Of a stretch of DNA of 64,000 nucleotides, positions 38,058-55,887 are shown piece by piece (positions within the stretch are counted from its first letter, which is position 1; each line of letters begins with the position of its first letter). The stretch is from Bacteroidota bacterium. Its GTDB lineage: Bacteria; Bacteroidota; Ignavibacteria; UBA10030. Under the pieces are notes generated by a model. That model worked only from the letters and a program-made list of their open reading frames with translations, searched no databases and was not told where the DNA came from. The position numbers were made by a program, and so were the translations under genes. The DNA is taken from the NCBI GenBank assembly GCA_035291905.1, contig DATDRF010000103.1:2805-66804 (forward strand), in the 5' to 3' direction.

Positions 38058-38065
38058 CGTTTTCT

Positions 38066-38259: not shown

Positions 38260-38419
38260 CGTTTTCTTGAAGTCAGGGTGAAAGTTTTGTATTTTCCATT
38301 ATTGCACGCGCCCGTACCCGCCAACATCACCCACGAACGCTTTTTTTGTGAGTGGCAGTGATTTTTGAGCGTCCCGCCACAAGGCGGGATCTGGACAAGT
38401 GCTTCAAAGAATTTCATAG

Positions 38420-38493
38420 CCCCCGTAGCTCAGATGGATAGAGCAGCGGTTTCCTAAACCGCTTGTCGGACGTTCGAGTCGTCTCGGGGGCAC
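38420..38493 (+). tRNA. tRNA-Arg (anticodon CCT)
   Basis: Acceptor GCCCCCG/CGGGGGC plus discriminator A; D arm GCTCAGATGGATAGAGC; anticodon arm GCGGT-TTCCTAA-ACCGC (CCT); T arm GGACG-TTCGAGT-CGTCT; CCA not encoded. Confidence 0.9.
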
Positions 38494-38505
38494 AATCGGT
38501 TTCAC

Positions 38506-38568
38506 CGTTGTCGGACGTTCTCAGCCGTAGGCTGATCCGCCTTTGGCGGAGAGTCGTCTCGGGGGCAC
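38506..38568 (+). repeat. Direct duplicate of the 3' 34 nt of tRNA-Arg (33/34 identical), interrupted by a 30-bp insert forming two perfect 6-bp hairpins
   Basis: ccgttgtcggacgttc (38506-38521) and gagtcgtctcgggggca (38552-38568) match tRNA positions 38459-38493. The insert 38522-38551 is tcagccgtaggctga plus tccgcctttggcgga. No 5' acceptor strand upstream, so this is not a complete tRNA. Confidence 0.75.
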
Positions 38569-55559: not shown

Positions 55560-55593
55560 GCGGTTCGTCGCGGGTCGCGGCAATGCAGTCTTG

Positions 55594-55750
55594 GGTAGTG
55601 TCTCAATTTGGATGTAGTTCTTAACGCAGAGACCTGCCTGCGTGCCGACGATCCCAAGTCGAAATTCCCGATGAGTGTTCACTTCGGCAGGCAGGTCTGC
55701 GTCCTTTGCGACTCTGCGTTGTAGTCTATAATCGAAATTGAGACACTACC
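55594..55750. mobile_element. MITE-like nonautonomous element copy B (157 bp): 16-17 bp perfect TIRs, 8-bp target-site duplication CAGTCTTG
   Basis: GGTAGTGTCTCAATTT (55594-55609) is the reverse complement of AAATTGAGACACTACC (55735-55750). Direct repeats CAGTCTTG lie at 55586-55593 and 55751-55758. Shares TIR head GGTAGTG and the internal core with copy A; internal inverted repeat cgcagagacctgcctgcg / gcaggcaggtctgcg. Confidence 0.7.
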
Positions 55751-55887
55751 CAGTCTTGACTTTTGTTCAGAAAAAAGTAAATTATCATTGACCCCGCCGA
55801 CAGTTTCTCCCCTGACTGTCTGCATCATTGGGTCGGGCCCGGCGTTTCCCCAACGCTGGGCTTTTTGTTACGACAACAAGGAGTACC

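Follow-up and report, generated by a model that had tools for sequence, protein, structure and literature searches.

Between a lolD-like gene and the gene for a 93-aa protein, the 64,000-nt window (the whole stretch of DNA analysed here) carries a 157-nt palindromic sequence, and the locus raises the question of whether this is a mobile element, and of what kind, or a fixed regulatory structure. A sequence-only reading had proposed a recently active MITE family with two copies in the window, copy A and copy B, the latter being the 157-nt sequence. The family is real and recently active, and it is an element of a well-known kind. With a probability of roughly 90%, copy B is a non-autonomous DNA transposon (a MITE) that belongs to a small, lineage-restricted family and encodes no gene. 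The features of copy B are as follows.

55586-55593, no strand: left target-site duplication, CAGTCTTG, 8 bp, from repeat comparison
55594-55750, plus strand: MITE copy B, 157 nt; strand set by the internal core
55594-55609, plus strand: left terminal inverted repeat (TIR), GGTAGTGTCTCAATTT, 16 nt, end type I
55680-55705, plus strand: core common to copies A and B, CACTTCGGCAGGCAGGTCTGCGTCCT, 26 nt, holding a (GCAG)n tract
55708-55728, plus strand: right sub-terminal block common to copies A and B, GCGACTCTGCGTTGTAGTCTA, 21 nt
55735-55750, minus strand: right TIR, exact complement of the left TIR
55751-55758, no strand: right target-site duplication, CAGTCTTG, ending in the TTG of a conserved -35 box

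Most of the anatomy described in the sequence-only reading was reproduced: the two 16-nt TIRs are exact reverse complements, the same 8 bp stand on both sides, and the core and the right sub-terminal block are identical in copies A and B. The distances and neighbours were also correct, with copy B starting 35 nt past the lolD stop (55559) and ending 138 nt short of the start codon (ATG, 55888), and with tRNA-Lys and tRNA-Leu following the 55888 gene. The internal inverted repeat had been given as 16 bp; it is actually 12 nt when perfect (55630-55641 versus 55687-55698), or 17 nt with a 2-nt bulge. The arms reach 22 nt at 95% complementarity. Allowing up to three mismatches, the TIR motif matched four times in the window versus 0.39 expected from shuffles, and these four matches were both ends of copy A and both ends of copy B. 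An 8/8 match between flanks arises in the window with an empirical chance of ~3e-5 per site. Copy B folded as a single long hairpin (-75.9 kcal/mol, z = -9.3); copies A and B each formed one long hairpin on either strand (z of -7 to -9.3), both strands folding equally well because the sequence is a DNA palindrome. The Rfam 15 covariance models gave nothing overlapping copy B even at E <= 10, and only tRNAs passed in the window. Six-frame and profile protein searches for coding capacity returned only spurious ORFs called over other copies.

Copy B was missing from the orthologous site in three relatives (L039, L040 and L041), whose small protein is 90%, 79% and 71% identical to that of the window. 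The spacer between lolD and the downstream gene measured 173, 140 and 163 nt in these relatives versus 328 nt in the window, and the alignment dropped copy B exactly, resuming at a single CTGTCTTG or ...CTTG. In L039, with a nucleotide identity of ~84% to the window, the empty site holds one CTGTCTTG; relatives at ~84% identity and below were without copy B. The second copy in the window gave an empty site at much closer range. Its features are these.

38058-38065, no strand: left target-site duplication of copy A, CGTTTTCT, beginning right after a response-regulator stop codon
38066-38259, plus strand: MITE copy A, 194 nt, end type II (GGTAGTGGGTCAGTTT), with an additional internal hairpin module
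38260-38267, no strand: right target-site duplication of copy A, CGTTTTCT, 8 bp

Site A was empty in contig ERZ27254869:k141_265256 (L038 and L004), which carries copy B and over 25 kb agrees with the window at 99.8-99.97% identity. The empty site in L038 reads ...GGGATGA CGTTTTCT TGAAGTC..., with a single copy of the target, and the two BLAST segments that join L038 to the window at site A overlap by precisely the 8-bp target. Copy A was unaltered in L049. A 152-nt allele with the duplication and ends of copy A and a different interior was found in L050, and the right part of the L051 site was as in L050. In total, three alleles occurred at site A among strains at least 98.9% identical. They show directly that the family moved recently and that its interior changes fast. 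Related strains had been proposed as the place to look for empty-site alleles, and they supplied precise empty sites for both window copies; these two sites settle mobility, and the presence or absence of copy A between strains 99.8-99.97% identical bears out the claim of recent activity. As the family is polymorphic between strains ~0.1-0.2% apart in an uncultured Bacteroidota/Ignavibacteria-like population, it is usable as a strain marker.

A separate 57-nt indel between strains lies at 38494-38550, just past tRNA-Arg(CCT) (38419-38493). The window, L049 and L052 carry the insert, which L050 and L051 lack. Its last 18 nt repeat the 3' end of the tRNA (GAGTCGTCTCGGGGGCAC), and it resembles the attachment-site footprint of an integrative element.

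A census of copies with inspection of their flanks, as had been suggested, recovered about nine insertion loci on metagenome contigs of the 53%-GC lineage, plus a further one in a Bacteroidota MAG of 43% GC, the count being approximate as the composites L035, L007 and L009 may be assembly chimeras. Perfect 8/8 duplications of differing sequence flanked the element at five independent sites: A (CGTTTTCT), B (CAGTCTTG), C (AAACAGAT), D (TCATCTTG) and F (CAATTCAG), which is five of the five intact sites. At a sixth site, that of the 43%-GC MAG copy, the flanks matched at 7/8 positions. Copies beyond the window were as follows.

L019: copy C, flanks AAACAGAT (8/8), from the metagenome pattern scan
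L019, 14751-14918: second copy in this locus, 3.6 kb from copy C, running off the locus end
L031: copy D, 233 nt, flanks TCATCTTG (8/8), from the spurious-ORF profile search
L032-L034: copy E, decayed, right end truncated, from the spurious-ORF profile search
L036 and L037: copy F, a 92-nt derivative without the core, flanks CAATTCAG (8/8), from the spurious-ORF profile search
L035: copy G, a 292-nt composite with non-matching flanks, from the spurious-ORF profile search

These copies were reached by several routes. The metagenome pattern scan returned 18 loci, 15 of which were chance matches inside genes. Further copies were reached with a profile of the spurious ORF that gene callers translate over the element, after which the encoding contigs were fetched. 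The scan of reference genomes with the core gave one related element, in the 43%-GC Bacteroidota MAG (L001), and one unrelated match. A look-up of the downstream small protein yielded 22 contigs of the same population, all 22 with copy B. No further copies were found by nhmmer over the 442 kb of fetched loci, and an exhaustive HMMER search of 1.84 billion representative proteins, a route that depends on ORFs being called over copies, returned only the five ORFs already known. Scans of viral contigs with the core and two end types gave nothing, or chance matches without an inverted partner, and blastn against plasmid and phage records gave no match. According to the gene tables of the fetched loci, all copies are intergenic. 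The family looks lineage-restricted and, by the ORF-profile census, rare. It had been called genome-wide, a term that is only an extrapolation from two copies per 64 kb and about nine loci. The element had no match in the libraries searched, and the family was previously uncatalogued.

The repeat also leaves its mark on assemblies. Among the 10 site-B contigs listed, five begin inside copy B, and two of those five join the right half of copy B to another left half or flank. Such contig breaks and chimeric joins are typical of a multi-copy repeat, and the family is a practical cause of both in metagenome assemblies of this organism.

L035 8487-8778 and L036 10049-10140 have their left flank and left element end in common; L036 holds the 92-nt element with a perfect duplication, and L035 the 292-nt composite with another right flank and flanks matching at 4/8. 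Two copies have either recombined here, or the assembler has joined them into a chimera through the repeat. The second L019 copy has its interior inverted relative to copy C and carries a 'left-type' sub-terminal arm in place of the expected 'right-type' arm, which suggests arm exchange; the two L019 copies are separated by housekeeping genes only, with no transposase or composite transposon. The copies of the 43%-GC Bacteroidota MAG type occupy L001 4272-4442 and L030 73-243. The sequence left of the L001 element (GATAGATATGCAAATGTAATAAGG...TTTTAAATGT) recurs right of the L030 element, which suggests local tandem duplication of a ~260-nt unit, or wrap-around at a contig end.

Taken as a MITE, the element shows TIRs, duplications of fixed length, multiple copies, no coding capacity and precise empty sites. 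Its movement would depend on a DDE-type transposase encoded elsewhere that binds both GGTAGTG... TIRs and mobilises the element in trans, cutting the target with an 8-bp stagger and joining the element in; repair of the gaps would leave the 8-bp direct duplication. The copies themselves show interiors that change fast by deletion or slippage between short repeats, with the ends staying constant. The sequence-only reading had also considered an element without further copies or partner IS that is conserved as a fixed regulatory sequence at the orthologous site: additional copies were found, empty sites exist, and the partner IS was not found in the sequences searched.

The surroundings of site B bear on whether copy B acquired a local role. 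The upstream gene had the LolD equivalog as its best NCBIfam match at 286 bits, just under the curated cutoff of 307.75 bits, and is preceded by two LolC/E-type permeases. The downstream gene (ATG 55888) encodes a protein of 93 aa whose homologues carry PF11297 (DUF3098-type) and are labelled as coming from MAGs of Ignavibacteriales, Bacteroidia and Bacteroidota. From the homologues of the neighbour genes, the host, with a GC content of 52.8%, is an uncultured member of the Bacteroidota/Ignavibacteria group. Two features that are not part of the element lie between copy B and this gene.

55756-55783, plus strand: predicted sigma-70-like promoter, TTGACT-16-TAAATT, directly downstream of copy B
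55790-55869, plus strand: RNA-like block of two hairpins with C-rich loops, ending in an intrinsic terminator at 55835-55869

Both promoter hexamers are kept in L039, L040 and L041 (TTGACT, a 16-nt spacer, TAnATT), with a variable spacer sequence, and the lolD stop of these relatives stands 6-41 nt before the -35 box. The target of copy B was the 31-nt spacer between the lolD-like stop and the conserved promoter. Copy B had been placed in the promoter or 5' UTR of the 55888 gene. It is not in the 5' UTR; it does lie immediately upstream of the conserved promoter, the -35 box of which (TTGACT) overlaps the right duplication. Because the duplicated target holds the TTG of the -35 box, the insertion left the promoter complete.

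Copy B might have been co-opted, its hairpin or the new upstream DNA altering the stability or termination of lolCDE mRNA, or the downstream promoter, and the insertion being kept for that effect. This appears unlikely. The clade of at least 99.7% identity has copy B fixed, in 22 contigs out of 22, and the element abuts a promoter conserved across relatives and forms a very stable hairpin; drift alone, however, is expected to fix an insertion in so narrow a clade, and with the native -35 box regenerated by the duplication the promoter need not change. The ends of IS6/IS26 elements carry an outward -35 box and often make hybrid promoters (PMC6807381, PMC7986276), and the end of copy B has TTGAGA at the equivalent position, but no usable -10 stands at the right distance from either end, and the outward hybrid promoter was rejected for site B. 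The suggestion that copy B acts as a terminator for lolD also failed, as no terminator-like site lies in the element or at its end and the nearest one is downstream, at 55835-55863. No promoter next to copies A, D or F turned up in scans; targeting of insertions to positions just upstream of -35 boxes was accordingly rejected as well, being seen at B only. For copy B as a MITE, the most likely outcome at this site would be a very stable 157-nt hairpin added to any read-through transcript of lolCDE, and replacement of the DNA upstream of the -35 box, with effects on the neighbour genes that can only be inferred. The insertion at site B was probably near-neutral.

Copies of the family span 92-292 nt. 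The alignment of all copies was a mosaic of constant ends with a sub-terminal arm of ~25 nt, followed by optional modules. The size variants look like nested internal deletions of a ~290-nt master resembling E or G, with deletion junctions at short repeats such as CTGCGT. The variants F and A' (the L050-type allele of site A) lack the 'conserved core', which is therefore not needed for persistence. Within the core, the (GCAG)n tract (55686-55695) varied between strains, reading GGCAGGCAGG in the window and L004, GGCAGGCAGGCAGG in most other contigs (the site in L003, L005, L006, L012 and L029) and TTCGACAGG in the left half of one copy (L007), which indicates slippage inside the element. An internal TTGCGA-15-TATAAT was rejected as a promoter, its spacer being short and its -10 not kept in other copies.

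Three end types were distinguished: type I (GGTAGTGTCTCAATTT), type II (GGTAGTGGGTCAGTTT) and type III (AGTAGTGTATCAGTTT). The two TIRs of a copy matched at 16/16 positions in A, B, C, F and G and at 14/16 in D, and the two ends of the MAG copies differed by 4-5 mismatches. In end types I and II the two ends of a copy pair without any mismatch. Copies A and B differ at three positions per arm, yet each pair is perfect. Since D has two mismatches and the MAG copies four to five, selection does not generally act on arm pairing, and the differences are consistent with subfamilies. The 53%-GC and 43%-GC organisms have an identical end type III, and a 21-nt core, CTTCGGCAGGCAGGTCTGCGT, is common to the 53%-GC lineage and the 43%-GC MAG.

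From the core and end type III held in common at 53% and 43% GC, the matched arms of A and B, and the arm of the second L019 copy, it could be supposed that a foldback intermediate (hairpin or cruciform) homogenises the arms, or that a transposase or host factor binds the core, the family being then more than a passive parasite. We regard this as rather improbable. If true, it would mean an unusual mechanism of transposition or repair for an IS6/IS1-like system that makes simple insertions.

It is very improbable that copy B acts as a structured RNA or as an immobile hairpin with a cis-regulatory function, the matched arm changes being a product of selection on base pairing. The absence of the element from the orthologous site in relatives and in a near-identical strain largely refutes this, and every intact copy has target duplications. 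The fold z-scores of -7 to -9 that favour it were obtained on both strands, but equal folding of both strands is as for a DNA palindrome. The 21-nt core in common with the 43%-GC MAG also favours it, but variants F and A' are wholly without the core, and there was no Rfam match. As for the perfect pairs in spite of three differences per arm between A and B, pairing is lost in D and in the MAG copies, and compensated arm differences were ruled out as a general proof of RNA-pairing selection on account of these two to five mismatches. REP/BIME and IS200/IS605 systems insert without a target-site duplication and have no true TIRs, and a REP/BIME-like or IS200/IS605-type palindromic element (PATE), moved as ssDNA by a Y1 (HUH) transposase that recognises hairpins, is scarcely credible, since the mosaic interior rich in hairpin modules and the long overall foldback that recall it are contradicted by 8-bp duplications at five of five intact sites and by ends that match those of DDE-type IS.

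For the MITE, an IS6/IS26-like or IS1-like transposase would be most compatible with the GGnnnTG ends and 8-bp duplications, as inferred from the end sequences. An autonomous partner with matching ends was not found in the window, the 442 kb of fetched loci, the viral contigs or the plasmid and phage records, and the gene tables listed no transposase gene in any fetched locus. The ends of IS6/IS26 elements have G at positions 1, 2 and 7 (GGnnnTG), a trait in common with the IS1 family (PMC6807381), and internal cTGTt and caaa motifs with TGT fully conserved, and the elements make 8-bp duplications (PMC7986276). End types I and II start with GGTAGTG, with G at positions 1, 2 and 7, and type III starts with AGTAGTG. 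The type I end (GGTAGTGTCTCAAT) has the G positions, TGT and CAA; the counterparts of cTGTt and caaa are GTGTC...CAAT in type I, GTGTA...CAGT in type III and GTGGG...CAGT in type II, in which TGT is lost. MITEs of the IS6/IS26 family in ISfinder include MITEBth2 and MITEHarch3, with published sizes of 227 and 336 bp (PMC6807381, PMC7986276). The present family is like them in its 8-bp duplication, its GG start with G at position 7, TGT at positions 6-8 (end types I and III), CAA at positions 11-13 (type I), a -35-like hexamer inside the end, and a similar size range. It differs in that no IS6-type transposase was found nearby, type II has TGG for TGT, 'caaa' is CAAT or CAGT, the arms have ~40 nt of imperfect complementarity versus IS6 repeats of 14-20 nt, and it resides in an uncultured Bacteroidota/Ignavibacteria-like lineage. 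The classical product of IS6/IS26 transposition is a cointegrate and not a simple insertion (PMC7986276), and simple insertions of the MITE would therefore need an extra resolution step.

Compared with the ends of IS1A of E. coli K-12, the end of copy B resembled one (GGTAATGACTCCAACTT) better than shuffles did (p ~0.001-0.003), and the end types of A, D and the MAG copies showed no significant similarity to them. This likeness, significant for copy B only, is a lead. IS1 makes duplications of 8-9 bp, most often 9 bp. GG tips with 8-bp duplications also agree with IS1595 and ISL3. The family is like IS1 in its GGnnnTG tips, which are found in the IS1 family (PMC6807381, citing Siguier 2015), and in an 8-bp duplication within IS1's range of 8-9 bp; it differs in that IS1 mostly makes 9-bp duplications and in that no InsAB-like gene was found here. 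The GGTAGTGNNTCANTTT ends, together with the 8-bp duplication, offer a handle for finding an active transposase in the lineage.

The family does not change the general understanding of how MITEs work. Foldback MITE families include Correia/NEMIS of Neisseria, ERIC, RUP and MITEAba12, which are short, non-coding and intergenic, with TIRs and duplications. Hairpin transcripts in operons, size variants by internal deletion, and adjacency to promoters or terminators are found in such classical families. The present family is likewise composed of short non-coding intergenic elements with TIRs and duplications, but it has no sequence relationship to them (no Rfam, plasmid or phage match), and its duplication is 8 bp, that of Correia being TA and that of MITEAba12, a classical bacterial MITE (PMC6382973), being 9 bp.

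The conserved promoter and the small-RNA-like block that adjoin copy B may deserve more interest than the element itself, within this spacer. The conserved block spans 55756-55869, with orthologues at L039 2869-2979, L040 2682-2794 and L041 2863-2975. Its RNA-like part of ~80 nt has the loops UCUCCCC and UUUCCCCAA, and its terminator ends 18 nt before the DUF3098-type gene. The ~80-nt block matched no Rfam family, giving only sub-threshold matches to sRNAs with C-rich loops (anti-hemB, NmsRb). It was more conserved across the relatives than the flanking proteins, with compensatory changes at two base pairs, and could be an undescribed small RNA or leader.
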